Assembly (NCBI GenBank): GCA_965218115.1
Contig: OZ244584.1
Location: 1,646,576 to 1,710,575 of the forward strand
Direction: 5' to 3'
Length of the DNA: 64,000 bases
Origin: Dehalococcoidia bacterium
GTDB taxonomy: Bacteria; Chloroflexota; Dehalococcoidia; Bin125
Part shown: positions 5,274-59,867 of the stretch, piece by piece
Numbering within the stretch: position 1 is the first letter of the stretch
Layout: each line of letters opens with the position of its first letter
Program-made: the position numbers and the translations under genes
Notes under the pieces: model-generated
What the model saw: the letters and a program-made list of their open reading frames with translations, nothing else
Told to the model about the DNA's origin: nothing
Databases searched by the model: none

Positions 5274-6722
5274 TCAGTCGGCGCTCGCGGCGACCGGGGG
5301 CGCCTCGGTTTCGACGATCGCCTCGGAGGGCGCGAGGCGCCCGCCCCTGGTGATCCTCAGCACCGCGTAGCCCAGCAGGGCCGCGATGATCGAGGCGGCA
5401 AAGACGCCCATCTTGGCCGCTTCGAGCGAGGTCACACCTGAGGGGTCGTCGAGATCGAAGGAGAGATTGGCGATAAAGATGGCGACGGTGAAGCCGATCC
5501 CGGCGAGCAGCGCGGCGCCGGCGAGGTGCGTCCAGGTTAGCGAGGGAGGCTTGATCGCGATCCTGAAGCGAATCGCGAGCGCCGAGACGAGCAGAATCCC
5601 GCCGAATTTGCCCAGTAACAGGCCGAGGAAGATGCCCCAGGCGACGTTGGAGCTGACGGCGGCGGAGATGCTGTCGCCGCTGATCAGGATGCCCGCGTTG
5701 GCCAGCGCGAAGAGCGGTACCACGAAGAACGCCGAGATCGGGGCTGCCTCTTCCTCGAGGCGCTCGAGTGGACTCATGCCCTCGTGGGCGACGTGACGCA
5801 CGCCGCGCAACGCTTCTTGCGAGTCGGCTGCGGCGACACGCGGGTCCTCATCGCCCATCGCGTGGCGCAGACGCTGCAGAAAGTAGTCGATCCGCCGAGA
5901 CGTGCCTTCGTGGTTGTACAGCGAGCTTGCCGGCACGATCAGGCCGAGGATCACCCCGGCGAGCGTGGAATGAATGCCGGCTTCCCACAACGTGAGCCAG
6001 AGAATTGCACCACCGATGGCGTGCACCCCGAAGTGTCGGACCCCGACCCGCTTCAGCAGCAGCAAGAACGCGACAGCGCCGAGCAGGCCGCCGATCCACT
6101 CGATCCGGATGTTCTCGCTGTAGAAGATGGCGATGATCAGAATCCCGCCCACGTCGTCGGCCACCGCGAGTGTGAGCAGGAAGATCTTCAGCTGCACCGG
6201 GATTCGCGGCCCGACCAGCGCGAGCACACCGAGGGCAAAGGCGATGTCCGTGGCGACGGGGATGCCCCACCCGGCGCTGCCGGCGCCGCCGGCGTTGAAC
6301 GCCGCGTAGATGGCTGCGGGCACGATCATGCCGCCCAGCGCCGCAGCGATCGGCAGGGCCGCCTGGCGCGGGTTCTGCAGCTCGCCGTGCACGACCTCGC
6401 GCTTGATTTCGGCGCCGACGACTAAAAAGAAGACCACCATGAGCACGTCGTTGACGACGTGTTGCAGGCTGACTCCGCTGCCGGGGTGGAGTTTGTCCTC
6501 GAACGCCCAGATCGCCAGATCGAGGCGAACCTCCGCATGCCAGAACGACGTGTAGGCGTCGGGCGCGGCGTTCGCCCAAATCATCGCCACGACCGCAGCC
6601 GCGACCAGCACGATCCCGCCGGCGGCCTCGACCTGCATGAAGCGCAGGGTCGGTTCGACGACGAGCCGACGGATCGGCCCGGAGCCCTGCATCCACGGTG
6701 GTCGGTAGAGGTCGGCCATCAC
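5274..6722 (-). CDS. nhaA: Na+/H+ antiporter NhaA
   Basis: 482-aa polytopic membrane protein with NhaA-family sequence features. Confidence 0.8.
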   Translation of the reverse strand: MMADLYRPPWMQGSGPIRRLVVEPTLRFMQVEAAGGIVLVAAAVVAMIWANAAPDAYTSFWHAEVRLDLAIWAFEDKLHPGSGVSLQHVVNDVLMVVFFLVVGAEIKREVVHGELQNPRQAALPIAAALGGMIVPAAIYAAFNAGGAGSAGWGIPVATDIAFALGVLALVGPRIPVQLKIFLLTLAVADDVGGILIIAIFYSENIRIEWIGGLLGAVAFLLLLKRVGVRHFGVHAIGGAILWLTLWEAGIHSTLAGVILGLIVPASSLYNHEGTSRRIDYFLQRLRHAMGDEDPRVAAADSQEALRGVRHVAHEGMSPLERLEEEAAPISAFFVVPLFALANAGILISGDSISAAVSSNVAWGIFLGLLLGKFGGILLVSALAIRFRIAIKPPSLTWTHLAGAALLAGIGFTVAIFIANLSFDLDDPSGVTSLEAAKMGVFAASIIAALLGYAVLRITRGGRLAPSEAIVETEAPPVAASAD

Positions 6723-6844: not shown

Positions 6845-9800
6845 TCAGATCGTGAAGTAGTGCGCATCGGGGTGGTGGACGATCAGTGCGGAGGTCGATT
6901 GCTCGGGCTCGATCTGCCACTCCTCGGAGAGCGTCGCGCCGATCCGCTCGGGCTCGAGGATGCGCCAGAGCTGCACCTGGTCCTCGAGATTCGGGCAGGC
7001 CGGGTAGCCGAACGAGTAGCGCGCGCCGCGGTAGGTGGTCTTGAACAGGTCCTGCGGGGTCGGGCCGTCGGCGTCGGCGATGCCCAGCTCGGCGCGCATC
7101 CGGCGGTGCCAGAACTCGGCCAGCGCCTCGGCCAGCTCGACGCCGAAGCCGTGCCAGTAGAGGTAGTCCTGATAGCGGTCGGCGGCGAACAGCTCGGCGG
7201 TGTGCCGGGAGACGCGCCGGCCCATCGTGACGACGTGGAAGCCGACCGCGTCGGTCCGGCCCGATTCGACGGAGCTGAAGTAGTCCGAGAGGCAGAGCCC
7301 CTGTTTGCCGTCCTGACGCGGGAAGCTGAAGCGGGCGAGCTCGCCCTCAGCGCCGGGTCGGTAGACGATCAGGTCGTCGCCGGAGGACTGGGCGGGGAAA
7401 TAGCCGTAGACGACGGCGGGTTCGAGGATGCCCGAGCTGATCGCTTCGGCCTGGAGCCGGCGCAGTGCGGGCCGCGCCTCCTGCTCCACCAGCTCGGCCC
7501 AGGCGTCCTGTCCGTCGCGGCTGCGGAAGCCCCACTGCCCGCGGAAGAGGGTGGTCTCGTTGATGTAGGGGAAGAGCTCGGCGAGCGCGAGCCCGCGCAC
7601 GACGCGCGTGCCCCAGAACGGGGGCACGGGAATCTCGGCGACCGGGGCGATTGGGCGGGGCTCGGCGAGGGCCGTCGCGGCCCGCCTGGGCTTCGCGCGG
7701 CGCGCGACCGGCGCGTGGTCGGGCGGGTCGCCGTCGGCCAGGGCGTTCATGATGCGCAGGCCCTCGAAGGCGTCCTGACCGTACCAGACACGGCCCTCGA
7801 AGCGCTCGCGCAGGTCGGCTTCGACGTAGCTGCGGGTCAGCGCCGCGCCGCCGAGCAGAATCGGCCAGCGCTCAGCGAGATCGCGGCGGTTGAGTTCGTC
7901 GAGGTCTTCCTTCATCACGAGCGTCGACTTGACCAGCAGCCCCGAGAGGCCGATGGCGTCCGCATCGTGCTCGATCGCGGCCTCGATGATCGGACCGATC
8001 GGCTGCTTGATGCCGAGATTGACGGTGCTGAATCCGTTGTTGCTGAGAATGATGTCGACGAGATTCTTGCCGATGTCGTGCACATCCCCGCGCACGGTCG
8101 CGAGCACGATCGTGCCCTTGCCCGCCGCGTCCGCCTTCTCCATGTGCGGCTCGAGCCAGGAGACCGAGGACTTCATCGTCTCGGCCGATTGCAGCACGAA
8201 GGGCAGCTGCATCTTGCCCGCGCCGAAGAGGTCGCCGACCTCCTGCATCGCGGGCAGCAGCAGGCCGTTGATGATCTCGAGAGCCGAGCGCGCCTCGAGC
8301 GCTTCGTCAAGGTCGTCGTGCAAGCCCTCGCGCAGGCCGTCGACGATGCGGCGGTGCAGGCGTTCTTCGACCGTCAGCTCGGCGATGTCGCTCTCGTCGC
8401 GGCGCAGCGAGACGCCCTCGAAGAGGGCCATGAACTCGGTCAGCGGGTCAGCGCCATCGACCCATTCGTCGTGGATCAGCCGCAGGGCGGCTCGGCGATG
8501 CCGCTCGTCGATCTGGTGCGCCGGCAGAATCTGGGCAGCGTGCACGATCGCGGCCGAGAGGCCGCGCTCGACCGCCTCCTGTAGGAAGACGCTGTTGAGT
8601 ACCTGTCGCGCCGCCGGGCTGAGACCGAACGAGACGTTGCTGACGCCGAGGATCGTCTGGGAGCGCGGGAAGCGGCGGGTGATCTCGCGGATCGCGTCGA
8701 GCGTCTCGATCGCGTCGCGGCGCAGGTCTTGTTGCCCGCTGCCCAGCGGCATGGTCAGCGCGTCGAAGAACAGGTCCTCGGGAGGCAGGCCGTAATCGTT
8801 GGTGGCGATGCCGTAGAGCCGCTCGGCGATCGCGAGCTTGCGCTCGCAGGTGCGGGCCTGGCCGACCTCGTCGATCGAGAGCGCGACGACGCTGGCGCCG
8901 AAGCGCACGGCCGCGGAGAGCGTCTGGTCGAGCCGCTTGCCGCCATCTTCGAGGTTGATCGAGTTGACGATCGCCTTACCGCCGAGCAGCTTGAGGCCGG
9001 CCTCGATGACCGGCGGCTCGGTCGAGTCGAGCATCAGCGGCAGCGTCGAGAGCCCGCGCGCCTTGCGCACCAGCTCGTCCATGTCGGGCACCCCGTCGCG
9101 GCCGACGAAGTCGACGCAGAGATCGGCGACGTGCGCGCCCTCGCCGGCCTGGTCGCGCACGACGTTGGCCATCTGCTCCCACTGCTCTTCATCGAGCAAG
9201 CGCTTGAAGCGGCGTGAGCCGTTGGCGTTGGCGCGCTCGCCGACGATCAGGAACGAAGCGTCCTGGCGGTAGGGCACGGCGCTGAACAGCGACGCGGCGG
9301 CCGCCGGGAGACGGGGATCGCGTCGCGCCCGTTCGACGCCCTGGACGGCATCCTTGACCGCGCGCACGTGCTCGGCCGTGGTGCCGCAGCAGCCCCCGAC
9401 GATGCTGACGCCGTAGTCGCGAATGAAGCTGGCCTGCGCGTCGGCGAGCGCGTCGGGCGTGAGGTCGTAGACGGTCCGGCCGTCCTCGACGTGGGGCAGG
9501 CCCGCGTTGGGCGAGCAGAGCAACGGCAGCGGGGCGCTCTCGGCGAGGAAGCGCAGCGGTTCGTGCATCAGGTCGGGACCGGTGGCGCAGTTCAGCCCGA
9601 TCCCGGCGAGCCCGAGCGGGGCGAGCGCCGTCAGCGCTGCGCCGATCTCGCTGCCGACCAGCATCTGACCGGTCGTCTCGATCGTGACGGTGGCGAAGAC
9701 GGGGGTGTCGAGGCCGCGCTCGGCCAGGGCATCGCGGCAGGCGAGGATCGCGGCCTTGCCCTGCAGGAGGTCATAGACCGTCTCGACCAGCAGTGCATCG

Positions 9801-10255
9801 ACGTCGCCGTCGAGCAGCCCGCGGGCCTGTTCGAGGTAGGCGGCGTGCACTTCGTCGAAGTCGACGTGCCCGAGGCTGGGCAGCTTGGTGCCGGGGCCGA
9901 TCGAGCCGATCGTGAAGCGCGGCGCGTCGGCGGTCGCGAAGCGATCGGCGGCGGCGCGGGCGTGGCGGGCGGCGGCGGCGTTGATCTCGCGTGCGCGCGC
10001 CGCGAGGTCGTATTCGCCAAGCGTGATCGAGGATGCGCCGAAGGTGTTGGTCAGCACCGCGTCCGCGCCCGCCTCGAGGTAGGAGACATGCAGCGCCTCG
10101 ATGGCCTGCGGGCAGCTCAGGTTGAGGATTTCGTTGCAGCCCTCGAGCCCCTCGAAGTCCGAGAGCGGGAGGTCCATCGCCTGGATGCCGGTGCCCGTGG
10201 CGCCATCGAGCACGACGGCGCGGCGGGCGGCGAGATCAAGCAGCTTGGGACGCAC
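6845..10255 (-). CDS. metH: Cobalamin-dependent methionine synthase
   Basis: 1136 aa with homocysteine S-methyltransferase, pterin-binding, B12-binding (…GDVHDIGKN…) and AdoMet-activation domains in the canonical order. Confidence 0.9.
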   Translation of the reverse strand: MRPKLLDLAARRAVVLDGATGTGIQAMDLPLSDFEGLEGCNEILNLSCPQAIEALHVSYLEAGADAVLTNTFGASSITLGEYDLAARAREINAAAARHARAAADRFATADAPRFTIGSIGPGTKLPSLGHVDFDEVHAAYLEQARGLLDGDVDALLVETVYDLLQGKAAILACRDALAERGLDTPVFATVTIETTGQMLVGSEIGAALTALAPLGLAGIGLNCATGPDLMHEPLRFLAESAPLPLLCSPNAGLPHVEDGRTVYDLTPDALADAQASFIRDYGVSIVGGCCGTTAEHVRAVKDAVQGVERARRDPRLPAAAASLFSAVPYRQDASFLIVGERANANGSRRFKRLLDEEQWEQMANVVRDQAGEGAHVADLCVDFVGRDGVPDMDELVRKARGLSTLPLMLDSTEPPVIEAGLKLLGGKAIVNSINLEDGGKRLDQTLSAAVRFGASVVALSIDEVGQARTCERKLAIAERLYGIATNDYGLPPEDLFFDALTMPLGSGQQDLRRDAIETLDAIREITRRFPRSQTILGVSNVSFGLSPAARQVLNSVFLQEAVERGLSAAIVHAAQILPAHQIDERHRRAALRLIHDEWVDGADPLTEFMALFEGVSLRRDESDIAELTVEERLHRRIVDGLREGLHDDLDEALEARSALEIINGLLLPAMQEVGDLFGAGKMQLPFVLQSAETMKSSVSWLEPHMEKADAAGKGTIVLATVRGDVHDIGKNLVDIILSNNGFSTVNLGIKQPIGPIIEAAIEHDADAIGLSGLLVKSTLVMKEDLDELNRRDLAERWPILLGGAALTRSYVEADLRERFEGRVWYGQDAFEGLRIMNALADGDPPDHAPVARRAKPRRAATALAEPRPIAPVAEIPVPPFWGTRVVRGLALAELFPYINETTLFRGQWGFRSRDGQDAWAELVEQEARPALRRLQAEAISSGILEPAVVYGYFPAQSSGDDLIVYRPGAEGELARFSFPRQDGKQGLCLSDYFSSVESGRTDAVGFHVVTMGRRVSRHTAELFAADRYQDYLYWHGFGVELAEALAEFWHRRMRAELGIADADGPTPQDLFKTTYRGARYSFGYPACPNLEDQVQLWRILEPERIGATLSEEWQIEPEQSTSALIVHHPDAHYFTI

Positions 10256-12791: not shown

Positions 12792-13364
12792 TCAACGAGG
12801 AGGGGAAATCCGCTGAGCACTCTGCCATGAGGTCAGTCGCCGGACGCCCACGTTCCAGACAGCGAATGCTGCAAGGAACACACCCTTAGGAATCCCGCCG
12901 GACACAGTCTTCGGCTCCATTGCGTACCTCCAATCGACGAATGCAGTGTCCGCCGTGGCGAAGACCACGTCGATGTCGTGCTCGCTCCACCACGACGCCC
13001 ACTGTGCCTGTATGGCAGCAAACTCCGCTCGGACCTCGTCTTGTACGTCTTGGTCGAGCCGTTCGAACAGCGTATGTAGGCCATGCGTACCACGCTTGCC
13101 TTTGGGATCGGCTCCCGGATCTGTCTGTGCGATGAGTGTCTTGATCGCGATCTCCGCTCCGTGTGTCGTCAAGAGGATCGCCGACGTCTGGATGCCGAGT
13201 TCGCTCGGGTGTTCCTCCTTCGCATCGACGCGTTGCCTCATGTGTGGCTCCGCTTTTTCGATCACCATTTTCATTACTTCGAGCTCACCCAACAAGGATT
13301 TGAGCGCCAGCGGCACGTTCCAGTGAGGGTTTATGCTCGGTCCGCCCAGATACCAATGAGCCAC
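12792..13364 (-). CDS. Hypothetical protein in a lower-GC patch, with a possible HEPN-like Rx5H motif
   Basis: 190 aa. The region is visibly more AT-rich than the flanking genes. It contains KRGTHGLHTLFERL, and no confident family assignment was possible. Confidence 0.4.
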   Translation of the reverse strand: MAHWYLGGPSINPHWNVPLALKSLLGELEVMKMVIEKAEPHMRQRVDAKEEHPSELGIQTSAILLTTHGAEIAIKTLIAQTDPGADPKGKRGTHGLHTLFERLDQDVQDEVRAEFAAIQAQWASWWSEHDIDVVFATADTAFVDWRYAMEPKTVSGGIPKGVFLAAFAVWNVGVRRLTSWQSAQRISPPR

Positions 13365-13701
13365 CGTATGTCCCTTCGACTCAGATATATGATTATGCCA
13401 CAGCTCTCAACGATGTTGGGTGGCTTTCCGTTTGGATGATGCGACGTGCATGTCTCACCAGGTGCTGAGTCACATGCGTGTGGTGAGACCCCACAGATAG
13501 GATCGGCGACGTTGGGCTGGACGCTGCCGCCGCGGATGCCGGTGGCATCTGGGATGGTGTGCTCTGCTCGCTTATTGACACACAGAGCGCTGCGGCCTAC
13601 TCGCCGATGTACCAATATGATTCGTCGAGCTAGTCTAGCGTCTTGTCCCGCCTCGCCAACCAGGGGACTGTGAAGCGTTCGAGGGCCGCGACCAGACCTA
13701 T

Positions 13702-15687
13702 TCACATACTGAGGCCCAGATCGCGCAGGAAGGCTTCGGGGGAGGGGTCGCGGCCGAGGAAGCTGCGGACTAGCTGCTCGCCATCCTGGGCGCCGCCTCG
13801 TTCGAGGATTGCGGAGCGGTATTCACGGCCGACCGACTCTGGGGATGCCGCTGAGCCCTCGAATCTGGTGAACATGTCGTCGCCGTAGACGCGCGACCAG
13901 AGGTAGCCGTAGTAGCCCGCGTCGTAGCCGAAGAGGTGGCCGAAGCCGGCCTGGAAGTGCGTGTCGGGCGGGAAGGCGAAGCCGGTGATGGGGTGCAGCT
14001 CGCGCGCGATCGCGTCGGTGTCCTTGCTCGCGCCGGGGCCGTGGTAGGCGAGGTCGAGACGTGCGAAGTAGACCTGCCGCAGCGTGGCGATCCCGCTGCT
14101 CACGTACTTGGCCGCGATCAGCCGGTCGATCAGGTCGCCGGGCAGCGGGCTGCCGGTCTGCCAGTGGCGGCTGAAGCCGGCCAGCACGTCGCGCTCCCAG
14201 CACCAGTGCTCGAGCATCTGCGAGGGCGCCTCGACGAAGTCGCGTTCGACGCGGGTGCCGGAGAAGCGGGTGAAGCGCGCGCGCGTCAGCGTCTGGTGCA
14301 GGATGTGTCCGAACTCGTGGAAGAGCGTGACCACCTCGGTGTGGCGCAGCAGCGAGGGCGAGCTCTCGGTCGGCTTGGTGAAGTTGGCGACGATCGCCGA
14401 GACGGGTCGCTGGTAGCCGCCACCGGCGAGGTCGCGCCCGCCGCGCAGCGTGAAGGCGGCGGCGTGGCCGAACTTGCCGGGCCGGGGGTGTAGGTCCATG
14501 TAGAAGCGCGCCAACGTCTCGCCGCCGGCGTTGTCGACGATGTCGAAGGGCCGAGCGTCGGGATGCCAGGCGTCAGCCGCGGCGTCGTCGCGCGGCACGA
14601 ACGTCACGCCGACGAGCCGCTGGTAGACGTCGAACATGCCCTCCAGCACGGCATCGAGCGGGAGGTAGGCGGCGACCTCGAAGGGGTCGACCTGGTGCTG
14701 CTCGAGCAGGACGCGGTTGGTGTAGTAGCGCCAGTCCCAGATCTTGACGTCGCCCGACGCGCCGGTGCGCCGCTCCTGTTCGCGCTTGAGCAGGTCGAGG
14801 TCGGCTGCGAGCTTGGCCCCGAGCCGAGCTTCCAGGTCGGTGAGGAACTCCATCACGCTGTCGGGCGACTTGGCCATCCGCAGCTCGAGCACGTAGGCGG
14901 CCCAGGAGGGATAGCCGAGCCGCCGCGCAATCTCGTCGCGCACGCCGATCGCTTCTTCGAGCAGCGCGATGTTATCGCCGGCTGCCTTGTTGTGGTTCTT
15001 GAGAAAGATCTCGCGTCGCAGCTCGCCGTCGTCGGCGGAGTCGAGGAAGGGGTGCAGCTCGGGGTAGTCGAGCGAGACGCGGTAGCTGGTCGCGCCGTTG
15101 TGCTCGCTGCTCTGGAGCCGCTCGATGTACGAATCGGGCAGGCCACTGAGCTGGCCGCGCGAGACCGTGATGTGGTCCTCGTAGTCGTCGATGTTGCGGC
15201 GGAACTGGATGCCGAGCCGGACCAATCGCTCGTGCAGCTCCTGCACGGCGTCGCGTTCCTTGGCGGGCAGGTCGAAGCCGTTGCGACGGTAGTCGCGCAG
15301 GCAGAACTCGAGTAGCCGAGCGGCATCGTCGGGCAGGGCCTGAGTCTCGGCGCGGGTCGCGTAGGCCTTGAGCGCGCGGTCGATCTCCTCACGAAAGCCG
15401 AGGCCGCTGGCGAACAGATCGAGGCGCTCTTCCTGCTCGTGGGCCACGCTGCGCAGGGCGGGCTCGGCCGCGACCTGCGAGAGGAATCCGAACTGACCGC
15501 TGGCCTGTCCGATCAGGTCTGAGATGCCGTCGAGCGCGAGCACGGTGTTCTCGAAGTCGCGCCGGCCATCGGGTACCGAGGCGATCGCGTCGACGTGACG
15601 CTCGGCCTCGTCGATCGTCGCTGCGACCCCGCTGCGGATGGCGTCGGCGTCGATTTCGGACCAGTTCGGCGTGTCGAGCTCAGTCAT
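13702..15687 (-). CDS. M3-family metallopeptidase (oligopeptidase A / peptidyl-dipeptidase Dcp type)
   Basis: 661 aa with the HEFGHILH zinc motif and M3-like length and layout. Confidence 0.85.
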   Translation of the reverse strand: MTELDTPNWSEIDADAIRSGVAATIDEAERHVDAIASVPDGRRDFENTVLALDGISDLIGQASGQFGFLSQVAAEPALRSVAHEQEERLDLFASGLGFREEIDRALKAYATRAETQALPDDAARLLEFCLRDYRRNGFDLPAKERDAVQELHERLVRLGIQFRRNIDDYEDHITVSRGQLSGLPDSYIERLQSSEHNGATSYRVSLDYPELHPFLDSADDGELRREIFLKNHNKAAGDNIALLEEAIGVRDEIARRLGYPSWAAYVLELRMAKSPDSVMEFLTDLEARLGAKLAADLDLLKREQERRTGASGDVKIWDWRYYTNRVLLEQHQVDPFEVAAYLPLDAVLEGMFDVYQRLVGVTFVPRDDAAADAWHPDARPFDIVDNAGGETLARFYMDLHPRPGKFGHAAAFTLRGGRDLAGGGYQRPVSAIVANFTKPTESSPSLLRHTEVVTLFHEFGHILHQTLTRARFTRFSGTRVERDFVEAPSQMLEHWCWERDVLAGFSRHWQTGSPLPGDLIDRLIAAKYVSSGIATLRQVYFARLDLAYHGPGASKDTDAIARELHPITGFAFPPDTHFQAGFGHLFGYDAGYYGYLWSRVYGDDMFTRFEGSAASPESVGREYRSAILERGGAQDGEQLVRSFLGRDPSPEAFLRDLGLSM

Positions 15688-18255: not shown

Positions 18256-19470
18256 ATGTCCACCCCCATGCTTCGTCGCTTGATTCTCAAGAGCTTTCGA
18301 AGTGTGCATGCGGCCGCGATCGATCTTGACAACCCGACGCTCCTAGTTGGGCAAAATGGCGCGGGCAAGAGCAACGTCGTCGACGCGCTTGCATTTCTGG
18401 CCGAGCTGATGTCGTCTCCGCTGTCCGCCGCATTCGACAGGCGGGGCGGAATTGCGGCAGTCCGGAATCGCCGCCTCGGACAAAGCCACCCACCGAACAT
18501 GGGATTCCGAGTGGACGTGTCGCAGCCGGACGTCAACACAAAGGAGGCTATGTACGCCTTCGACGTACGGGCACGAAAGAACTACGGCTTTGAAATAGTG
18601 AGAGAACAATGCGCCGTGGTCGACCTAGACGGGTTCACCACATGGTGGTTCGACCGGCGCCGTGATGGAGAGTTCAGCAGCAACGCAAGTTCGTTGAGCC
18701 CCGCATTGGAACCGGAAGCGCTAGCGCTTCCACTTATCGGCGGCGACTCGAGATTTAGACCCATCGTTCAGTTCCTCAGCGACATGCGAGTATACAGAAT
18801 AGAGCCGGTCGTGCTCAGGGAGATGCAGGAACCTGATAGCGGTTTGCGCCTCAACCCGGACGGTAGCAACACAGCGAGCGTGCTCAGAGAGATCGAACGG
18901 AACTCTCCTCACGGGCGTCAGCAGATACTAGCTTTGTTAGAACATATTGTCCCGAACACTGTCGATGTCAAGCCGAAAGCACACGGCAACAAGCTGGCAC
19001 TTGAGTTCGCTCAGCAATGGCCGGACGCACGGAGCATCAAATTCGAGGCCTTCAATATGTCCGACGGAACGCTTCGCGCACTCGGGCTACTGGCTGCGGT
19101 GTTCCAGCAGGCACGACCTTCCGTCTTGGTCATCGAGGAACCCGAAGCCACCATTCATCCCGGTGCGATCGAGGCCGTGCTGGATTTGTTAGAGCATGCG
19201 ACCAGAGATATGCAAGTTATCGCAACCACACATAGTCCAGACCTGCTCGATGCCAAGTGGATCGAAGATCGATTCCTCAAGATCGTCCGCTCGGAAAGGG
19301 GCGCCACAATGGTCTCCCCGGTTTCTCCAGAAGTCAGAAGCGCATTGCAACAGCACCTCATGGGAGCGGGGGAGCTTTTACGAGCGAATGCGCTGACCCC
19401 CATCAGCTCCAGCGATTTGTTCATCCGTGACCCCCGGCAGTTACGTCTTTTCGAGTCACTTTCGTCGTGA
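18256..19470 (+). CDS. ABC/AAA_21-type ATPase of the OLD/AriA-like family
   Basis: 404 aa with Walker A LLVGQNGAGKSN, the ABC signature NMSDGTLR, Walker B VLVIEEPEATIHP and the H-loop ATTHSP. An RBS (AAGGGAG) lies upstream. GC is visibly lower than in the flanks. Confidence 0.75.
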   Translation: MSTPMLRRLILKSFRSVHAAAIDLDNPTLLVGQNGAGKSNVVDALAFLAELMSSPLSAAFDRRGGIAAVRNRRLGQSHPPNMGFRVDVSQPDVNTKEAMYAFDVRARKNYGFEIVREQCAVVDLDGFTTWWFDRRRDGEFSSNASSLSPALEPEALALPLIGGDSRFRPIVQFLSDMRVYRIEPVVLREMQEPDSGLRLNPDGSNTASVLREIERNSPHGRQQILALLEHIVPNTVDVKPKAHGNKLALEFAQQWPDARSIKFEAFNMSDGTLRALGLLAAVFQQARPSVLVIEEPEATIHPGAIEAVLDLLEHATRDMQVIATTHSPDLLDAKWIEDRFLKIVRSERGATMVSPVSPEVRSALQQHLMGAGELLRANALTPISSSDLFIRDPRQLRLFESLSS

Positions 19471-20105
19471 AGATAGTCCCAGTAGTGGAGGGGGAGGGTG
19501 AAGTTAAGGCAGTGCCTATCTTATTGCGCCGGATGATTGCACTGGTAGAGGCGTTCGAATCGATACAGGTCGGCCGGCCTATCCGCAAACCGCGCAGCCA
19601 ACTAACTAAGCGCGAGGGAATGGTTGAGGTCTTGAAGCTTGCCCGCATTCAGGGGGCGGACTCGGTTTTGTGCCTCTTTGATAGCGATGGTGTATGCCCA
19701 GTCAATCTGGCAGCGTGTTTACTGAACTGGGCGAGGGAGGAAGCATCGGACTTGGACTGTCATGTGGTAGTTGCCCATCAAGAATACGAGGCGTGGTTTT
19801 TGGCATCTATTCCTTCGCTTCGAGCGCACCCTGCGATGAGAGACGATGCAGAGTGCCATCCGAATCCAGAAGCGCGTCAAGGCGCGAAAGAACAGCTACA
19901 TAGCCGCATGCAGACTGGCAGCAGTTATTCACCAACGGCTCACCAAGCGGCATTCACCGCCAGCTTTGACATGGCATCCGCATACGCACATTGTCGATCA
20001 TTTCGAAAATTGACTAGCGCATTCGGCCAGATTCTCAGTAGGGTCGATTCGAACGTTGCTCACTGGCCACCAAGAGAATGGTCGGACACGATCATCCCCG
20101 AGTAA
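19467..20105 (+). CDS. TOPRIM-like small protein (DUF4276-like), partner of the upstream ATPase
   Basis: 212 aa with a GTG start overlapping the ATPase stop (GTGA). The N-terminus KIVPVVEGEGE resembles the TOPRIM catalytic Glu strand, CLFDSDG resembles the DxD motif, and HQEYEAWFL resembles the conserved DUF4276 HEFEALLF region. Confidence 0.6.
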   Translation: MKIVPVVEGEGEVKAVPILLRRMIALVEAFESIQVGRPIRKPRSQLTKREGMVEVLKLARIQGADSVLCLFDSDGVCPVNLAACLLNWAREEASDLDCHVVVAHQEYEAWFLASIPSLRAHPAMRDDAECHPNPEARQGAKEQLHSRMQTGSSYSPTAHQAAFTASFDMASAYAHCRSFRKLTSAFGQILSRVDSNVAHWPPREWSDTIIPE

Positions 20106-21934: not shown

Positions 21935-22593
21935 GCGACGAGTCGCCCTTTCGGCCCGAACACTTCCGCAAGTACGACGAGTCCGACGACGCGCGGTTCT
22001 ATGTCGAGCCGCGCTTCGTCGCGCACATCGACGAGACCGCGATCGCGGCGCTCTCTGAGTACTACGCGCAGGTCCTGAAGCCCGAGGACCGGGTGCTCGA
22101 CCTGATGTCGTCGTGGGTCTCGCATCTCCCGGCGGGCTACCAGCCTGCGCGCGCCGTCGGCCTGGGGATGAACGCCGATGAGCTGTCGCGCAACCCGGCG
22201 CTCGACGACTGGGTGGTGCACGACCTCAATCGCGAGCCGACGCTGCCGTTCGAGGACGCCAGTTTCGACGCGGTGCTGATCGCGGTCTCGGTCCAATACC
22301 TCCAGCGTCCTTTGGAGGTCTTCGCGGAGATCGCTCGTGTGCTCGAGCCGGGCGGCCGCTGTGTCGTCTCGTTCTCGAACCGCTGCTTCCCGACCAAGGC
22401 GGTGGCGCTCTGGCAGGGCCTCAACGATTCAGGCCACGTCCAGGCGGTGGGCGCCTACTTCCAGCATGCGGGCGGCTTCGAGGCCGCCGAATGGCTCGAG
22501 CGCAAGACGCCCGGCACGGACCCGCTCTACATCGTGCAGGCGCGGACGCCGGTGGGGAACGAAGCTACTGAGCGGACGCGGTCGCCCGCTTAA
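21931..22593 (+). CDS. Class I SAM-dependent methyltransferase
   Basis: 220 aa with VLDLMSSWVSHLP…FDAVLIAVSVQYL…LEPGGRCV, which are methyltransferase motifs I and post-I. Confidence 0.7.
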   Translation: MSDESPFRPEHFRKYDESDDARFYVEPRFVAHIDETAIAALSEYYAQVLKPEDRVLDLMSSWVSHLPAGYQPARAVGLGMNADELSRNPALDDWVVHDLNREPTLPFEDASFDAVLIAVSVQYLQRPLEVFAEIARVLEPGGRCVVSFSNRCFPTKAVALWQGLNDSGHVQAVGAYFQHAGGFEAAEWLERKTPGTDPLYIVQARTPVGNEATERTRSPA

Positions 22594-23125
22594 GATTGAG
22601 CGTGAGCAACAGCTCCAGCATCTCGTCGTCGCCGATATCGGGGGGCCAGCCGTAGGCGGCGAAGACGGCGGCGTCGAGTGTTGCGTGGAGGTTGGCGAGC
22701 CAGGTGGGGCGTTCGTTGTAGAGATTGGTCAGCGTGCGCTTGCGGAGCTGTTTTTCGGCGTGTTCGTCGACGGGCAGCAGACGCGGCGGCAGCGAGGGAA
22801 TCACGTCGGGCTCCTCGCGCACCCACTCGGGCGGGTTGAGCCAGAGGCGACGCTTCGAGTCCAGCTCGCGCGCCGCCTCGCCGATGGCGTCGCGGTGGGC
22901 GCGTTGTTCGGGGGTCAGCGCATCATCGGGTGTGTTGAGCGGCCAGGGGAATGGGAAGGTCTCGAACGTGGTGGTCGGCGTGTAGCGAGGGCGGTCCTCA
23001 AGGCTGTCTCCCATTCGCAAGGACCAGAATTCGTACGCAGGTGAGTCTGGCATCGAGGCAAAGTAGACGACGCATATGTCGCGCGGACGCCGCGTCACAT
23101 GCAGCCCGTTGACCCATGAGCCCAC
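22565..23125 (-). CDS. C-terminal fragment of an MmeI/PglX-family (type IIG/IIL restriction-modification, BREX-type) enzyme
   Basis: 186 aa with TFETFPFPWP…LTNLYNERPTWLANLHATLDAAVFAAYGW…DDEMLELLLTLNLKRA, matching the conserved C-terminus of MmeI-family proteins. GC is high, as in host genes. Confidence 0.6.
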   Translation of the reverse strand: MGSWVNGLHVTRRPRDICVVYFASMPDSPAYEFWSLRMGDSLEDRPRYTPTTTFETFPFPWPLNTPDDALTPEQRAHRDAIGEAARELDSKRRLWLNPPEWVREEPDVIPSLPPRLLPVDEHAEKQLRKRTLTNLYNERPTWLANLHATLDAAVFAAYGWPPDIGDDEMLELLLTLNLKRATASAQ

Positions 23126-23270
23126 GCCTCAGGCTCCCTCCGTAGGTCACCCGCATCCCACCCGCCGCCCGAACAGGCACTACTTCGACATGCAACGCAG
23201 CGCTAGGCAGTCAGAAAGGGTCATCAGTCCCGTGGAAACACTCACATTCCACCAGGCGCATACATTTATC

Positions 23271-24194
23271 TCACGGATTTCTGTTCGTAAGGTCCTTTAA
23301 GCGACGCGTCAACATCTCTTTGAGCCCTGTCATGTTGTCGTACTCAGGGCAATTGTATTCACTTAAGTCGAAGTGGAGCTTAGTCCCTCGTTTCCGGTAT
23401 AGTATCACCCTTTTGTCAAGCGCATGAGCGTATCCGACTTCGTAGTACACGTTCGGCTTTTCATTGGTCAAGTCAGCCATGAGGAATTCGGACTTGTTGA
23501 TCCTTTCTCTGACTTTATCTGTTATTCTGCCCTCGTGTTCGATTTCATCAGCACGCACAGCGGCTATTGAGAAATCACCGAAGCAATCGCGGATCGTATT
23601 GTAAGTGTCTTCGAGACCAGGATCGTCCCGATCAATGGCCATCATGACGAATGCCGAGTTTGGTTCGTACGATGTGGTGGATTGGGGGTTGGCTCGCCAC
23701 TCTTCAGTGACGAAGGTTGGGGAGACATCGAGGAGTTCAACCAAGCCCAGTATATTTTCGATGTCGCGCTGGTAATTGCGAAGTGCGATCTTGGGATGAA
23801 CGGGCGTCGTATCTGATTGACTGGCGGGTTGAAATCCGAGCACTTCGCCCTCATCGTGCAATACTTCCGGTTCCGAAAACTCGTAAAGCCGCAACCGAAG
23901 TGATGCGCGCGTTGACTTTGTCCACGTTCCAAGGTCTCGGTGGTCAACATCGGTCACCAGGGCCGAATACTTGAGTGAGTTCGCGATTGGCTTGATCGCC
24001 TTGAGGATCTGGCTCTGGAGGTCGGCGGACTGACTTTTCAAATCATCGTCCAGCTGGGACCAGAAATGGTCAGGCTCGATTTCCCAATACGGACGCTCAT
24101 CGTCATCCAGGTGCATTGCACGTTTGAAGAAGGTTCCGCCGTCGTCTCGGATCTGGGCGAATAGGCTGCGGTAAGGGGTGAAGTCGAGAGTCAT
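23271..24194 (-). CDS. Protein with a C-terminal nucleoside 2-deoxyribosyltransferase-like / TIR-like (SLOG-superfamily) domain and an unassigned N-terminal domain
   Basis: 307 aa. The C-terminus reads FVMMAIDRDDPG…LMADLTNEKPNVYYEVGYAHALDKRVILY, which follows the NDT pattern (…D.gt.fEvGyA.algKpvi.l). GC is clearly lower than in the flanking fragments. Confidence 0.55.
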   Translation of the reverse strand: MTLDFTPYRSLFAQIRDDGGTFFKRAMHLDDDERPYWEIEPDHFWSQLDDDLKSQSADLQSQILKAIKPIANSLKYSALVTDVDHRDLGTWTKSTRASLRLRLYEFSEPEVLHDEGEVLGFQPASQSDTTPVHPKIALRNYQRDIENILGLVELLDVSPTFVTEEWRANPQSTTSYEPNSAFVMMAIDRDDPGLEDTYNTIRDCFGDFSIAAVRADEIEHEGRITDKVRERINKSEFLMADLTNEKPNVYYEVGYAHALDKRVILYRKRGTKLHFDLSEYNCPEYDNMTGLKEMLTRRLKDLTNRNP

Positions 24195-24372
24195 CTTGTT
24201 CCGCCGATGGGAAAGGTGCGCGTCTTCGGCAAGTCATTCAGCGTCATGTTGGTGGAGTTGCTGAGCATTTCCCACGCCTAAGCCTATCCAGTTCTCCCTC
24301 GCGGCCCCCCTGCGGTTCCGCTGAACGAAACCGCACCGCGCCTTCCGTGAGTGGGCTTCAATCGCCCGAACC

Positions 24373-25155
24373 CTAACACTGATTCAGGTGACAGAGGCGA
24401 ACGCGCTTTGCCGTGTCGGCTTCCGGCGGCGGCTTTCGGCTCATCAAGTCAACGTTGTCGGGTTTGTCGGCGCGCGATCCGATCAGGTCGGTGATCAGGC
24501 GCTTGGGCAGCAGACCAACGTCCTCGGCGAAGAGGCAGAACAGCACACGATTGAGGAAGTGCGCGACCGGTTCGGGTTCGTGTCCGCGTTGCTGCATGGA
24601 GCGGGCGAGTTCGGCGAACCGCGAGGCCGCCGCGTCCGTGACCTCATCGGGGGTCTGTCGCGGACGCAGCGCCTGCGGCTCGCTCATCACTGCGCGCAGG
24701 ATGCGCAGCGCTCCCGCGGTCTTGTCCCCGCCGGCAGCAAGGTCTTCGAGCGTCAGCGAGTGGATGGTGGGACGGGTGTTGGTGAAGTTGGTGTGGACCT
24801 CGATCCGGTCCATGTCGCTGACGACGAGCACGGGCGGATTCTCGAGGTCTTCGCGGTAGTCAAGCAGTTGCCGATAGGCGGCGGCGAGGTCGGCGTGGTC
24901 GCCCTTGTACTCCCAACCGAAGTGTCGGCGCTTCCAGACGTCAGCCCAACCCTGGTTCCCGGTGCTCAGTCGTTCGGCGCCAGCCTCGAAGGTGTACCGC
25001 TCACCGGTCGGGTCGGCCTCGTTTGGGGTCTGGACGCCGAGCATGCGGCAGAGGTCGATGAAGTGCTCCTGCGAGGAGGCACGCTCGCGACGGGCGTTGT
25101 CGCGCCACTTGGCGGCGAATTGGGCAGCGGAGAGTGATCCAGGCGAAGCCGCCAT
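24373..25155 (-). CDS. N-terminal fragment of an MmeI/PglX-family enzyme: PD-(D/E)xK nuclease domain plus helical spacer, with the methyltransferase core missing
   Basis: 260 aa with AAQFAAKW…FIDLCRMLGV…ADVWKRRHFGWEYKG (D…ExK), VLVVSDMDRIEVHTNFTNT and RVLFCLFAEDVGLLP. All are hallmarks of the MmeI-family N-terminus and helical domain. It ends with a stop where the methyltransferase domain should begin. Confidence 0.65.
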   Translation of the reverse strand: MAASPGSLSAAQFAAKWRDNARRERASSQEHFIDLCRMLGVQTPNEADPTGERYTFEAGAERLSTGNQGWADVWKRRHFGWEYKGDHADLAAAYRQLLDYREDLENPPVLVVSDMDRIEVHTNFTNTRPTIHSLTLEDLAAGGDKTAGALRILRAVMSEPQALRPRQTPDEVTDAAASRFAELARSMQQRGHEPEPVAHFLNRVLFCLFAEDVGLLPKRLITDLIGSRADKPDNVDLMSRKPPPEADTAKRVRLCHLNQC

Positions 25156-26201: not shown

Positions 26202-26453
26202 TCAGTCGGCAGCGTGCAGACCATCGCCCGACTTGGCCTCGGCTTCGCGGTCCGCGGTTTCGAGCGCTGCGCGCTTGATGAAACGAATCAGTGGTCCACG
26301 GGGGTGTCGGCCACGGAGGCGTTCGACCTCCTCGCGATTGAATTCAATCTCGATGCCCAGCACGCCGGGACCCTTCTTCGCAGGGTCGTAGGGAATCTCT
26401 TCCGCATCGGCGATCGGCGTGTCAATGTGCAGCTTGCTGTGTTGCTTGGTCAT
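26202..26453 (-). CDS. BrnA-like antitoxin
   Basis: 83 aa downstream of the BrnT-like gene with a 4-nt overlap. It has the conserved …IEIEFNREEVERLR…RFIKRAALE…REA…. Confidence 0.5.
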   Translation of the reverse strand: MTKQHSKLHIDTPIADAEEIPYDPAKKGPGVLGIEIEFNREEVERLRGRHPRGPLIRFIKRAALETADREAEAKSGDGLHAAD

Positions 26454-26788
26454 CGCCTGCGCATCCTTCCTCCAGGTTGATGGTATCGCGTTCGTTCCTC
26501 ATCGTCAGAAATCCAACCGGTCACCACATGGGACATCCGATCCTGGTCGGAAGGCTCCAGGACGAAGGTCAACAGGAGGCCGGTTCTGTCGGGCCCGATC
26601 ATTTTCACTCGCTCCGGCTGAAAGCGAACGTTTCCCAGCTCGTCTTCGCGTTGCCTCGCTGGTTGGGCAAAGTACTTCGCCGGTCCTTCCCAGACGTCAT
26701 CGGCGTCATCGAGCGACAGCCCGTGCGCCCAGAGTTCATCATCGCTCGCATGGTTTCCGGTCACACCGCCGTATGGGATCTCAGGCAT
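26450..26788 (-). CDS. BrnT-like (DUF497) toxin
   Basis: 112 aa with …DELWAHGLSLDDADDVW… and …MIGPDRTGLLLTFVLEP…SHVVTGWISDDEERTRY. It follows the BrnT pattern (HG[ILV]xFxxA…; R[VI]IS.R.A…E…Y) and has toxin-first gene order, as in brnTA. Confidence 0.55.
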   Translation of the reverse strand: MPEIPYGGVTGNHASDDELWAHGLSLDDADDVWEGPAKYFAQPARQREDELGNVRFQPERVKMIGPDRTGLLLTFVLEPSDQDRMSHVVTGWISDDEERTRYHQPGGRMRRR

Positions 26789-34343: not shown

Positions 34344-35252
34344 CTAGGGCAGCCCGGCTCCGCCGACCTCGACATCGAACGCGCGGATCCGGCCGGTGCG
34401 CGGGTCGCCGGGCTGCGGCGCGGCGGTCACCGCTTCGAGCGTGAATAGCGTCTTGCGTTCGGGTCCGCCGAGCATGCAGGCGTAGACGCCGAAGTCCTCG
34501 ACATCGATTCGCTCCAGCAGCTCGCCGCCCTCTGCGACGCGCGCGACGGCGCCCGGCGTGGTCGGCACCGCAACCCAGATGCAGCCCTCGGCGTCGAGGC
34601 AGATGCCGTCGGGCGGGAACCCGAGATCGGCCCAGACGCGCTGATTGCTCAGCGAGCCGTCGGCCTCGATGTCGAACGCGGTCAGGCGCTGGCCCATGCT
34701 TTCGCCGACGATCAGCGTCTTGCCGTCGGGTGTGATCACCGTGCCGTTGGGGAACTCGATGCCATCGGCCACGACGCGCGCGTCACCATCGGGGGTGACC
34801 AGCACGATCGTCGTGGCGCGCGGCGATTCGCCCGCCTGGAAGTTGAAGCCGAAGTTGCCGATGTAGGCATTGCCCTCGGCGTCGACCACCATGTCGTTGC
34901 AGTGGTACGGCGCGTATTGGCTGATGTCGGCGACTTCGTAGAGCCCGTCCGGGTCGAGGCGCAGCAGCTTGCGGTCGACCATCGAAACCACGAGCAAGCG
35001 ACCGTCGGGCAGCCAGCCCAGCCCCGACGGTTGCTGCGGGACCTCGACGATCGTTTCGCGGTTGCCGTCCATGTCGACGGCCACGACCTCATGCGCGTGC
35101 ATGTCGGAGAACCACAGCCGCCCCTCATGCCAGCGCGGCCCCTCCGGAAAGACCAAGTTGCCCAGGATCAAGTGTGGCTCGCTGGTCATGGGGACCTCAT
35201 CTCCTCTTAGGGCAGTGTAGAACTCAGGGCGCCGACCCCCGATAGAATCCAT
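34344..35252 (-). CDS. SMP-30/gluconolactonase/LRE-family protein
   Basis: 302 aa with six-bladed β-propeller repeats (…EGPRWHEGRLWFSD…, …CNDMVVDAEGNAYIGN…). Confidence 0.8.
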   Translation of the reverse strand: MDSIGGRRPEFYTALRGDEVPMTSEPHLILGNLVFPEGPRWHEGRLWFSDMHAHEVVAVDMDGNRETIVEVPQQPSGLGWLPDGRLLVVSMVDRKLLRLDPDGLYEVADISQYAPYHCNDMVVDAEGNAYIGNFGFNFQAGESPRATTIVLVTPDGDARVVADGIEFPNGTVITPDGKTLIVGESMGQRLTAFDIEADGSLSNQRVWADLGFPPDGICLDAEGCIWVAVPTTPGAVARVAEGGELLERIDVEDFGVYACMLGGPERKTLFTLEAVTAAPQPGDPRTGRIRAFDVEVGGAGLP

Positions 35253-35260
35253 GTGCCGAT

Positions 35261-35881
35261 GTGAAGGCCGACCCGATCAGGCGACGTAGAACGGTGCGGT
35301 TCGATACGAGCATTCTCGTTGCGGCCATTCCTGTGGCACTAGCCGGATCTGCATACGCAGCATCACGGCCGGATACGACCACGGCGCTCTCTTACTACAG
35401 GGCGGGTGCCGATCTCAAACTTGCAGGTGAGGCAAACGCGATGTCTGTGATCCCGAAATCTGGCCCTTCACCGGTGGTCGTCGTAGGACCGGCACTCTAC
35501 GTAAGAACAACAGAGTCTATCGCGATGATCGTGTTTGAGTGCACGCCGGACGCTCTTGGGGACTTTGTCGCACTCGGCCCGCGCTCTTGTCTTGCGGGAT
35601 CAGCCGTCTCGAGCTTGGCATTGCCATCTGACAAAGCAGGCCACACTAACCACGCGGCTACTTTCACCACCGATGCAAGAGCGCTTGGAGATTTCGCCAG
35701 ATTTAGTGATGTTGAGCGGCGAAATCTCCTGCGCACCGCCCACGAACACCACTCAGAAGCTAGCACACCGATTGTGATCAGTCCAACACTCGCATCGCCG
35801 CCGCGTCCGATTGGTGTCATGTATATTTCAGGGAACTTGAAGAAGTCAGCAATCCTCAACTACTTTCTCAAGTGTCGCTGA
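35261..35881 (+). CDS. Hypothetical, probably exported, protein in a lower-GC patch
   Basis: 206 aa with an N-terminal RRRR…hydrophobic…AYAAS signal-like segment. No family was recognised. Confidence 0.35.
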   Translation: MKADPIRRRRTVRFDTSILVAAIPVALAGSAYAASRPDTTTALSYYRAGADLKLAGEANAMSVIPKSGPSPVVVVGPALYVRTTESIAMIVFECTPDALGDFVALGPRSCLAGSAVSSLALPSDKAGHTNHAATFTTDARALGDFARFSDVERRNLLRTAHEHHSEASTPIVISPTLASPPRPIGVMYISGNLKKSAILNYFLKCR

Positions 35882-36676
35882 GTCAGGAACGGCAGGCACC
35901 TATCGCGTCGCTTTATTCGCGATCGCTGTCGCTCCCGAGTTGAGGTCGGAGAACGAAATGGTGGAGATCATCATCGGTACAGTCGTCGGGGGAGTCATTC
36001 TTACTGCGTTAGGATGGGCCGTCCCGCGCCTTCCTAGGATTTACGCACGTCACATCCGCCCCTCGTATGGGCCACACTTCTTGATCGCGACAACTAGTCC
36101 GTGGGACGATCCTGACCCTCCGCCATATCCTGACAACTGGAGTGCTCGACTGATCGAAGCGATCAAATCGGGTTGGGCCAACATCTCGGTCTGCCTGAGG
36201 CTACGGAGAATGTAGCTGTGATGCGTGGAGACTCCACGAGCTGACGCTTGTGGACCGTGTTGCGACGATGACCACCGACGGCGATCAGCAGACACCGACA
36301 GCCACGTGTCGGCGGGCAGTGGTTCAGAGCAGCGAGCCACAGGGAAAGCGGCGAAACTGTATCGCCCCTAAAGGAACACAGCCCAGACCGACCACCACAG
36401 CCCGGACTCCGACCTACGCCTCGGTTCGCGGTCGGTCAGCTCAAGCGCGGCCCCCATGACAAAGCGCGTGATCCCCTCCGGGCAGCAGGGGTACCTGCCG
36501 GCAGTCGATCGATTCCCCCGGTGCTGAGTTGGACCTCAATGACGATCGAACCGGTCCCCGTCTACGAACGGTCGTAGGCGATCACTTCGGCCTCCTCAAT
36601 CGGCGAATTCACGACGTGTGCCGAATCTTCGCGCTCGCTCATCTGCCGAGCACCGTCCCACCGCGGCTACGGCGGC

Positions 36677-59705: not shown

Positions 59706-59779
59706 TGGCTGCCGCGCCAGGATTTGAACCTGAACTAAGGGATCCAAAGTCCCTGGTGCTACCGTTACACTACGCGGCA
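59706..59779 (-). tRNA. tRNA-Gln (anticodon TTG)
   Basis: The reverse complement folds as TGCCGCG acceptor … AGGGA-ctTTGga-TCCCT anticodon arm … GGTTCAAATCC T-loop … CGCGGCA-G-CCA. Confidence 0.75.
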
Positions 59780-59780
59780 G

Positions 59781-59867
59781 TGGTACCGAGGGCCGGACTC
59801 GAACCGGCACGGGCATTACACCCAATGGTGTTTGAGACCATCGCGTCTACCATTCCGCCACCTCGGC
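59781..59867 (-). tRNA. tRNA-Leu (anticodon CAA), with a long variable arm
   Basis: The reverse complement folds as GCCGAGG acceptor, GCGG-AATGGTAG-ACGC D-arm, ATGGT-ctCAAac-ACCAT anticodon arm, a long variable arm, GGTTCGAGTCC T-loop and CCTCGGT-A-CCA. Confidence 0.75.

Follow-up and report, generated by a model that had tools for sequence, protein, structure and literature searches.

A foreign gene within a broken MmeI-like restriction-modification gene of a Dehalococcoidia bacterium encodes a two-domain protein with an NDT/TIR-like module and a putative role in defense

What is the function of a protein whose gene is foreign to its genome, lies between the remnants of a restriction-modification (RM) gene, and joins a domain of no recognizable family to a domain resembling nucleoside 2-deoxyribosyltransferase (NDT)? 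This question is raised by a gene for a 307-residue protein in a 64,000-nucleotide stretch of contig OZ244584.1 of a Dehalococcoidia bacterium (the whole stretch is called the window here, and positions are counted from its first letter). A first-pass annotation of the window had suggested an N-terminal sensor and an accessory or defense role as effector. Our analysis, based on sequence, structure prediction, and genomic context, leads to a similar view: the protein is probably a stand-alone sensor-effector protein of anti-phage defense or another conflict that cleaves N-glycosidic bonds, and not a metabolic enzyme. The earlier suggestion is supported by exchanges of the N-terminal domain (with TIR, deaminase, and GGDEF partners), by exchanges of the C-terminal module together with its match to a profile for effectors of the cyclic oligonucleotide-based anti-phage signaling system (CBASS), and by a nonmetabolic context. 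The fold, the conserved Asp and Glu at NDT positions, the modular nature of both domains, the lack of a conserved partner, the surroundings of defense and RM genes, and an origin of the gene that is foreign and recent were computed; enzymatic activity, substrate, trigger, oligomerization, and anti-phage phenotype are what we infer from them.

The gene is an intact open reading frame (ORF) with an ATG start, and its product contains both motifs singled out in the first-pass annotation, FVMMAIDRDD and PNVYYEVGYAHALDKRVILY. Its GC content is 0.514, compared to 0.67 for the whole window, and its GC content at third codon positions (GC3) is 0.61, compared to 0.90 to 0.94 in neighboring core genes (isocitrate lyase, luciferase-like oxidoreductase, and Gfo/Idh/MocA). 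Calculated per 500 nucleotides, GC ranges from 0.49 to 0.54 over the gene and from 0.65 to 0.70 in the flanks; the kilobase harboring the gene has the lowest GC content of the entire window. The gene is foreign and was horizontally transferred, and the foreign GC content reported earlier is borne out by these values. No paralogue of either the N-terminal or the C-terminal domain is encoded elsewhere in the window.

AlphaFold2 models were built with a 49-sequence alignment. The full protein reached a predicted local distance difference test (pLDDT) value of 84.7; modeled alone, the N-terminal domain reached 89.6, with a predicted template modeling (pTM) score of 0.82. In the models, the C-terminal 130 residues show a flavodoxin-like fold of the NDT/TIR type, with NDT, MilB, and DNPH1 as the nearest structures, in accordance with the NDT fold that had been read from the last 120 or so residues. 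The N-terminal domain is predicted to be an up-down four-helix bundle with a four-strand β-meander inserted between helices 3 and 4. The family consensus of this meander is R-x-Y-x-x-W-D-x-E-V-L-H-D-E-G-x-V-L-G-V-x-P-A-G-Q-S-D; within the domain, L101, G120, and Q126 are invariant, and H113, D114, and E115 are nearly so. Searches of Pfam, NCBIfam, and PDB sequences returned no match for this domain, consistent with the previous assessment that the N-terminal part belongs to no recognizable family, and the full protein matched nothing in NCBIfam.

In NDTs and DNPH1, the Glu of an (F/Y)-E-x-G motif is the catalytic nucleophile. Both D241 and E252 of the window protein are invariant in 49 of 49 sequences, and a HMMER alignment, although weak (E ~1), places D241 at the active-site Asp of these enzymes and E252 at the Glu of FEVG in the NDT of T. 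brucei, of YELG in DNPH1, and of FELG in the NDT of Leishmania. The assignment of this Glu to the position of the NDT nucleophile, made initially from the motif, thus stands. A single-sequence search of solved structures yielded spurious coiled-coil matches only, and the family has no solved member. For the window protein, neither the Pfam TIR families PF01582, PF13676, and PF08937 nor ThsB_TIR or DUF4062 gave a match at an E value of ≤1, and the PADLOC ThsB1 profile reached an E value of only 0.006. Judged by sequence, the C-terminal domain inclines to NDT; it is a member of the NDT/TIR assemblage of Glu-dependent N-glycosidases and lies outside every curated family. The label SLOG, which the first-pass annotation had also attached to the domain, is not the best fold label; the closest structural and sequence relatives are not members of the SLOG superfamily (LOG, DprA, and the SLOG domain of ThsA), and membership in it was rejected.

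The family to which the protein belongs comprises 864 homologues at an E value of ≤1e-3, counted at 90% clustering. The best 120 are mostly full-length proteins of about 310 residues with 43 to 61% identity, and none is functionally annotated; the family extends over Latescibacterota, Chloroflexota, Nitrospirota, many Proteobacteria, Acidobacteriota, Verrucomicrobiota, and one metagenome-assembled genome (MAG) of Bathyarchaeota. A profile of the N-terminal domain alone, run against 1.84 billion representatives, retrieved 286 proteins. In some of these the domain, including the meander motif, precedes a TIR_2 domain (P0215), a dCMP/cytidine deaminase (P0231, P0234, and P0238), or a GGDEF domain (P0229 and P0185), and in others it is followed by a tail with a predicted membrane helix (P0197) or by other short tails; the three outputs besides the membrane tail act on NAD+ or nucleotides. 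Conversely, the C-terminal module, whose profile matches 4004 proteins at an E value of ≤1e-5, is found with 58 to 61% identity behind at least five unrelated N termini (L078; L079; L083, L084, and L087; L085; L086 and L088), and more distant modules with 31 to 36% identity occur in L057 and L064. Such a pattern, in which one N-terminal module is joined to alternative outputs acting on nucleotides or NAD+ and one output module to alternative N termini, typically marks sensor-effector conflict proteins.

The best profile match of the C-terminal module is to the TIR-type effectors of CBASS/Pycsar (PADLOC profile PDLC00733; CAP12-PCTIR_TIR). It has an E value of 4.7e-10 for the window protein, mostly between 1e-11 and 1e-13 for the relatives tested (best, 2.7e-13), and 3.4e-6 for the distant paralogue in L064. 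The match is confined to the C-terminal 140 or so positions of the profile (about 235 to 380 of 388), and the N terminus of the window protein does not match the 235 N-terminal positions. Relatives also give weak matches to PF10137. In addition, the module is present in four PHROG families of unknown function (best E value, 3e-21), and two viral contigs of 40 to 50 kb (L094, positions 5635 to 6486, and L095) encode a 283-residue protein with a different N terminus and a C-terminal module of 52% identity, located as an opposite-strand moron between the genes for a 1287-residue tail protein and a 1104-residue tape-measure-like protein. Two loci were seen to harbor second paralogues of the module, with Cys-rich or other N termini, beside a full-length family member (L064:11064-12140, minus strand; L057:4465-5400, plus strand), and a MAG of Arenicellales carries two full copies about 37 kb apart (L063 and L064).

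In the mechanism that we propose for a stand-alone defense protein, the N-terminal domain, with its helix bundle and meander, would hold the enzyme off until a cue arising from infection appears, which could be a protein of the phage or a small molecule. The cue would then allow the NDT/TIR-like domains to pair or oligomerize, as the active sites of NDTs and TIR domains require, and Glu252, helped by Asp241, would attack C1′ of the ribose or deoxyribose and thereby cut the N-glycosidic bond of NAD+ or a nucleotide. The resulting depletion of an essential metabolite would stop phage replication through abortive infection or growth arrest. Defenses based on dCTP/dCMP deaminases parallel the fusions of the N-terminal domain to deaminases.

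There is precedent for an NDT-like domain as an anti-phage effector in type II retrons (Ec86/Eco1 and Sen2): their NDT-like effectors deplete adenine nucleotides or NAD+ and need dimerization as well as the catalytic Glu, and those of Ec86 deplete adenine nucleotides after activation (bioRxiv 10.1101/2023.08.16.553469). The retron effectors differ in having an N-terminal NDT domain followed by a C-terminal winged helix-turn-helix and in needing a reverse transcriptase and multicopy single-stranded DNA, whereas the NDT-like domain of the window protein is C-terminal. A retron effector was therefore rejected, given this opposite domain order, the absence of a reverse transcriptase gene as neighbor (at the homologue loci and within ~5 kb in the window) and of a noncoding RNA partner at the homologue loci, and the absence of a PADLOC retron match. 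Single-protein systems also exist, namely the DUF4062 protein Swarozyc, a TIR-like NADase activated by a phage portal (10.64898/2026.05.01.722283), and the similar case of SpbK (PMC12847820). Both differ from the window protein, which matches neither Pfam TIR, ThsB_TIR, nor DUF4062 and has a different sensing domain. In Swarozyc, moreover, the catalytic Glu (E97) belongs to the DUF4062 domain and the remainder of the protein is an auxiliary domain, an order that is reversed in the window protein with its C-terminal enzyme. Both the sensor domain and the use of this NDT-like effector module in a stand-alone system appear to be undescribed; the 2023 PADLOC release contains no model for the architecture except for the partial CBASS effector match. 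The underlying design, i.e., a sensor fused to an effector of the TIR superfamily in defense islands or RM operons, is already established, so the protein is well suited for experimental study but holds no surprise in concept.

Several observations weigh against a defensive N-glycosidase. The Pfam family PF05014 matches residues 217 to 272 with an E value of 3.5e-5, but its score of 24.4 bits falls below the gathering cutoff of 28.8 bits; nine relatives with other N termini also score below threshold (14.7 to 27.7 bits). Family-profile matches to solved NDT and DNPH1 structures have E values of only ~1. The β1 strand of the C-terminal domain reads S-A-F-V-M-M-A-I-D, and its A-F-V-M-M segment presumably lacks both the aromatic-x-A/G-G-P/S motif of NDTs and the phosphate loop G-S-I-R-G-G of DNPH1; with these substrate motifs missing, the substrate, and even catalysis, is not deducible. 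The pTM score of the full-length model, 0.51, indicates an uncertain interdomain arrangement. Because GGDEF fusions represent an ordinary signaling output, the N-terminal domain alone is not diagnostic of defense. A promoter scan of the insert that carries the gene found no sigma-70-like site, so expression at this locus is putative, and the gene may be a passenger in this genome. Finally, all NDT-like defense proteins found in full-text literature searches belong to retrons, and no paper on this family or architecture was found.

Some of these features bear at the same time on an ordinary metabolic role, in which the protein would be an NDT or a nucleotide hydrolase of salvage. Such a role might be suggested by the nearest structures and by the name "nucleoside 2-deoxyribosyltransferase" given to homologues in some database sources. 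To assess the context, ORFs from 89 homologue loci (83 nonredundant) were clustered all against all, and 150 immediate-neighbor ORFs were scanned with Pfam and PADLOC. No family of nucleoside or nucleotide metabolism is conserved among these neighbors, and homologues in metabolic operons, a possibility considered in the first-pass annotation, were not encountered; instead, the homologues reside in RM operons, in defense islands, and at a moron site of a phage tail module. Compared to NDT, DNPH1 (Rcl), and MilB (PF05014 and its clan), the window protein thus scores below the gathering threshold, has a deviating β1 strand, and carries an added domain of 160 residues, which it has in common with TIR, deaminase, and GGDEF proteins, and its family occupies defense and RM neighborhoods without metabolic context. 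Taking into account also the foreign GC3 and the patchy, horizontally transferred distribution in RM operons, islands, and phages, we reject the metabolic enzyme as extremely improbable.

Across the 83 nonredundant loci, no partner or neighbor family is conserved. The commonest neighbors are subunits of type I RM systems (Pfam Methylase_S in five cases and N6_Mtase in three; PADLOC MTase_I in six and Specificity_I in five), and others include ThsB_TIR (three), TIR_2 (two), AAA_21 ATPases (three), transposases and integrases, and a type III restriction enzyme. The association with RM genes is concentrated among the closest nonredundant relatives (54 to 61% identity), eight of nine of which are situated downstream of hsdM in type I operons (L001, L002, L003/L010, L011, and L013 to L016); in six of the eight, hsdS follows directly, starting between 13 nucleotides before and 55 nucleotides after the stop codon of the NDT-like gene. 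Relatives with ≤50% identity mostly do not adjoin RM genes, and genes of more distant relatives occur alone, in Nitrosomonas near Fic, PIN, and GmrSD genes and in Vibrio on an island that also encodes DUF4365, VspR, and a helicase. Contigs with deaminase and GGDEF fusions are too short for informative context.

This arrangement recalls defense genes embedded in RM operons or genes, such as PrrC in EcoprrI, RonA of Ronin, RloA-F, and TgvAB, and the window protein may likewise form a second line of defense, although PrrC, RonA, and GmrSD have no relation to it in sequence or fold. PrrC and Ronin are cell-death effectors released by anti-restriction proteins (10.1101/2023.04.06.535777). By analogy, the window protein could be a guard that is kept inactive by the methyltransferase or specificity subunits of the RM system surrounding it and fires once that system is knocked out by an anti-restriction protein of a phage, having become an orphan here after decay of its RM partner. 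The position next to hsdM and hsdS in close relatives, the insertion within another RM gene here, and the two precedents fit this idea. We nevertheless consider it quite unlikely, since the link to RM genes is limited to one clade and the gene persists where they are broken: in L002 (5998 to 7954) hsdM, and in L003 (7116 to 7994 and 11091 to 12816) hsdM and hsdR, are split around an intact NDT-like gene, the same pattern as that of the broken MmeI-like gene in the window. Furthermore, the gap between hsdM and hsdS also holds varied unrelated cargo, including a ThsB-like TIR protein, a Lit-like peptidase U49, DUF1828, a Macro-domain protein, and a Vsr/Dcm/HATPase set, so a hotspot fits better than a specific partnership, and RM-embedded genes are able to act on their own, as TgvAB demonstrates (PMC11411939). 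As a side observation, L012 and L013 (10986 to 16486) both encode downstream of the NDT-like gene a Vsr endonuclease, a protein of 716 to 718 residues with a double HATPase_c domain, and a C-5 cytosine methylase; L013 additionally contains the Lit-like peptidase U49 gene, and L012 an Endonuclease_NS gene upstream.

A stand-alone effector also has to be distinguished from a signal generator of the Thoeris type, as hinted at in the first-pass annotation, which like ThsB would produce a nucleotide second messenger to activate an effector whose gene is located elsewhere. In the type I operons of L011 and L015, the NDT-like gene is immediately preceded by a ThsB_TIR gene (9223 to 9885 and 9297 to 9779, respectively), with 53% identity between the two and no ThsA-like gene in evidence, and TIR-family members account for 5 of the 150 immediate-neighbor ORFs. 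No ThsA-type gene with SIR2-SLOG or TM-Macro domains, nor any other conserved partner, was found at the 83 loci. In the window, no thsA is present within ~5 kb, where the ORFs of ≥300 nucleotides, apart from the MmeI-like remnants, are housekeeping genes. The strongest profile match is to an effector, and the deaminase and TIR outputs of the sister architectures are of the kind usually seen in terminal effectors. A Thoeris-like role is therefore not favored and is, in our estimate, decidedly unlikely, and ThsB itself was rejected. A CBASS effector was rejected as well, there being neither a CD-NTase nor a pyrimidine cyclase among the neighbor families listed and only the C-terminal part of PDLC00733 being matched.

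The locus itself shows how the gene is embedded. On either side of it, on the same strand, the ORFs at 24373 to 25155 and 22565 to 23125 represent the N- and C-terminal pieces of a single MmeI-like type IIG RM gene. The former matches Pfam MmeI_N (4.3e-11) and MmeI_hel (2.8e-8) as well as positions 4 to 269 of the 1136 positions of PADLOC REase_MTase_IIG (2.6e-57), and the latter matches positions 888 to 1028 of the same profile (6.2e-35). With a full-length 965-residue plasmid homologue from Agrobacterium (pDG3-1d) as tblastn reference, residues 1 to 224 (window positions 25134 to 24448) and 804 to 956 (23035 to 22583) are retained, in differing frames, whereas residues 225 to 803, i.e., 579 residues including the entire methyltransferase core, are replaced by the insert, into which the 5′ remnant ORF reads up to a stop at 24373. 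The nuclease, helical spacer, γ-class N6-adenine methyltransferase, specificity, and C-terminal domains are thus not encoded in one ORF, and the MmeI-like gene is a pseudogene, in line with the first-pass annotation, which called it broken.

According to our proposal, the gene would have been acquired horizontally on a piece of 1.4 kb that took the place of the methyltransferase core, and its product would act independently of the dead gene. The ends of the insert show no terminal direct or inverted repeats above chance-level short matches; its flanks have no tblastx or blastn similarity to the hsdM and hsdS flanks of relatives, no remnants of hsdM or hsdS were found, and no tRNA gene is located nearby. 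Repeats, RM remnants, and tRNA genes accordingly all fail to account for the insertion. One weak terminator-like site (23084 to 23070) lies within the 3′ remnant. As the gene has the same orientation as the 5′ remnant, read-through transcription is possible.

A metagenome contig of a sister strain (L090) contains a near-identical protein, with E146D as the only substitution, between the same two MmeI-like remnants, which indicates that the locus is not an assembly artifact. The genes of the two strains differ at 2 of 924 nucleotides. Mismatches number 7 in 1613 (0.4%) within a low-divergence tract that covers the insert and adjoining parts of the remnants, compared to 76 in 945 (8.0%) in the outer parts of the remnants (Fisher P = 4e-26); insert divergence is ~18-fold below that of the flanks, in a comparison with a 2×-coverage contig for which chimerism is possible. 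The pattern fits an insert that was imported recently, with homologous recombination acting through the remnants on either side; a gene-specific sweep would fit as well. As a side observation, L090 has ~563 nucleotides (L090:2559-3120) that are absent from the window at about 22542 to 22548, just past the 3′ remnant, and that contain a 126-residue ORF with matches to retropepsin-like Asp_protease.

These data also bear on whether the gene is an inert passenger or a decaying relic in this genome that hitch-hiked on recombination and is either not expressed or not useful. Besides the missing sigma-70-like promoter and the embedding in a pseudogene, two nonconservative changes at near-invariant sites of the N-terminal domain, W107S and G125S, would fit such a state. 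Most of the other deviations at near-invariant positions are conservative, however; the ORF is intact and retains every family-invariant residue, and W107S occurs also in the intact homologue P0034. Moreover, the near identity of the insert despite 8% flank divergence suggests recent spread, and expression could result from the read-through mentioned above. We therefore regard an inert passenger as quite improbable.

Coordinates of the gene, its domains, and the surrounding features are compiled in Table 1.

Table 1. Positions of the gene and associated features in the window
Feature	Positions	Strand	Basis
Complete gene for a two-domain protein (307 aa plus stop) of an uncharacterized family	23271..24194	-	Intact ATG ORF
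N-terminal domain, residues 1-160, putative sensor/regulatory module	23715..24194	-	AlphaFold2
β-Meander, residues 102-131	23802..23891	-	Best conserved stretch of N-terminal domain
Interdomain linker, residues 161-174, predicted disordered	23673..23714	-	pLDDT <50
C-terminal domain, residues 175-307, NDT/TIR-like with flavodoxin fold, putative N-glycosidase effector	23274..23672	-	AlphaFold2
Asp241 codon, motif A-D-L-T, aligned to conserved NDT active-site Asp	23472..23474	-	Invariant; HMMER alignment
Glu252 codon, predicted catalytic nucleophile, motif Y-Y-E-V-G-Y-A	23439..23441	-	Invariant; HMMER alignment
Foreign insert carrying the gene, 1412 nt, GC 0.547	23036..24447	.	tblastn with 965-aa full-length homologue; GC
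5′ remnant of MmeI-like type IIG RM gene (MmeI_N and start of helicase-spacer domain)	24448..25155	-	Pfam, PADLOC, tblastn
3′ remnant of the same MmeI-like gene (end of specificity region and C-terminal domain)	22565..23035	-	PADLOC, tblastn
Low-divergence tract versus L090 (insert and ~80-120 nt of each remnant)	22953..24565	.	Comparison with L090

If the protein is active as proposed, it would add a one-gene system to the defenses that deplete NAD+ or nucleotides. Its effector module, placed between metabolic NDTs and TIR NADases, could help to clarify how N-glycosidase chemistry was recruited to immunity, and the ligand or trigger of the new sensor domain could be sought by comparing the NDT, TIR, deaminase, and GGDEF fusions. 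The locus further illustrates how other defense cargo lands in RM genes and operons, outlives the RM genes, and spreads between strains by short-tract recombination. A more far-reaching idea, which we put forward as unlikely, is that the N-terminal module is an unrecognized and widely shared sensor of infection or anti-restriction with interchangeable outputs (NDT-like, TIR, cytidine deaminase, GGDEF, and membrane tail), and that in the RM-embedded clade it watches over the integrity of the restriction complex. The protein would then be a guard comparable to PrrC and would deplete nucleotides or NAD+ upon attack of HsdM/HsdS by phage anti-restriction proteins; this would define a new class of guards with a new fold for trigger recognition.

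The window contains further regions of deviating composition. On the plus strand at 18256 to 20105, a 404-residue AAA_21/AAA_15 ATPase gene overlaps that of a 212-residue DUF4276 protein; the pair corresponds to the PADLOC candidate system HEC-01A/HEC-01B (1e-108 and 7e-61), has a GC content of 0.54 to 0.57 and a GC3 of 0.55 to 0.65, and constitutes a second foreign islet with candidate defense genes ~3 kb from the NDT-like gene. Two overlapping minus-strand ORFs of 83 and 112 residues (26202 to 26453 and 26450 to 26788; GC, 0.60 to 0.62) show a toxin-antitoxin-like layout, with no Pfam match at 1e-4. Additional low-GC bins are found at 13001 to 14000 (0.60), 35001 to 36000 (0.586), and 58001 to 59000 (0.572), the last of which lies beside the genes for tRNA-Gln and tRNA-Leu (59706 to 59867) and could be an integration site.

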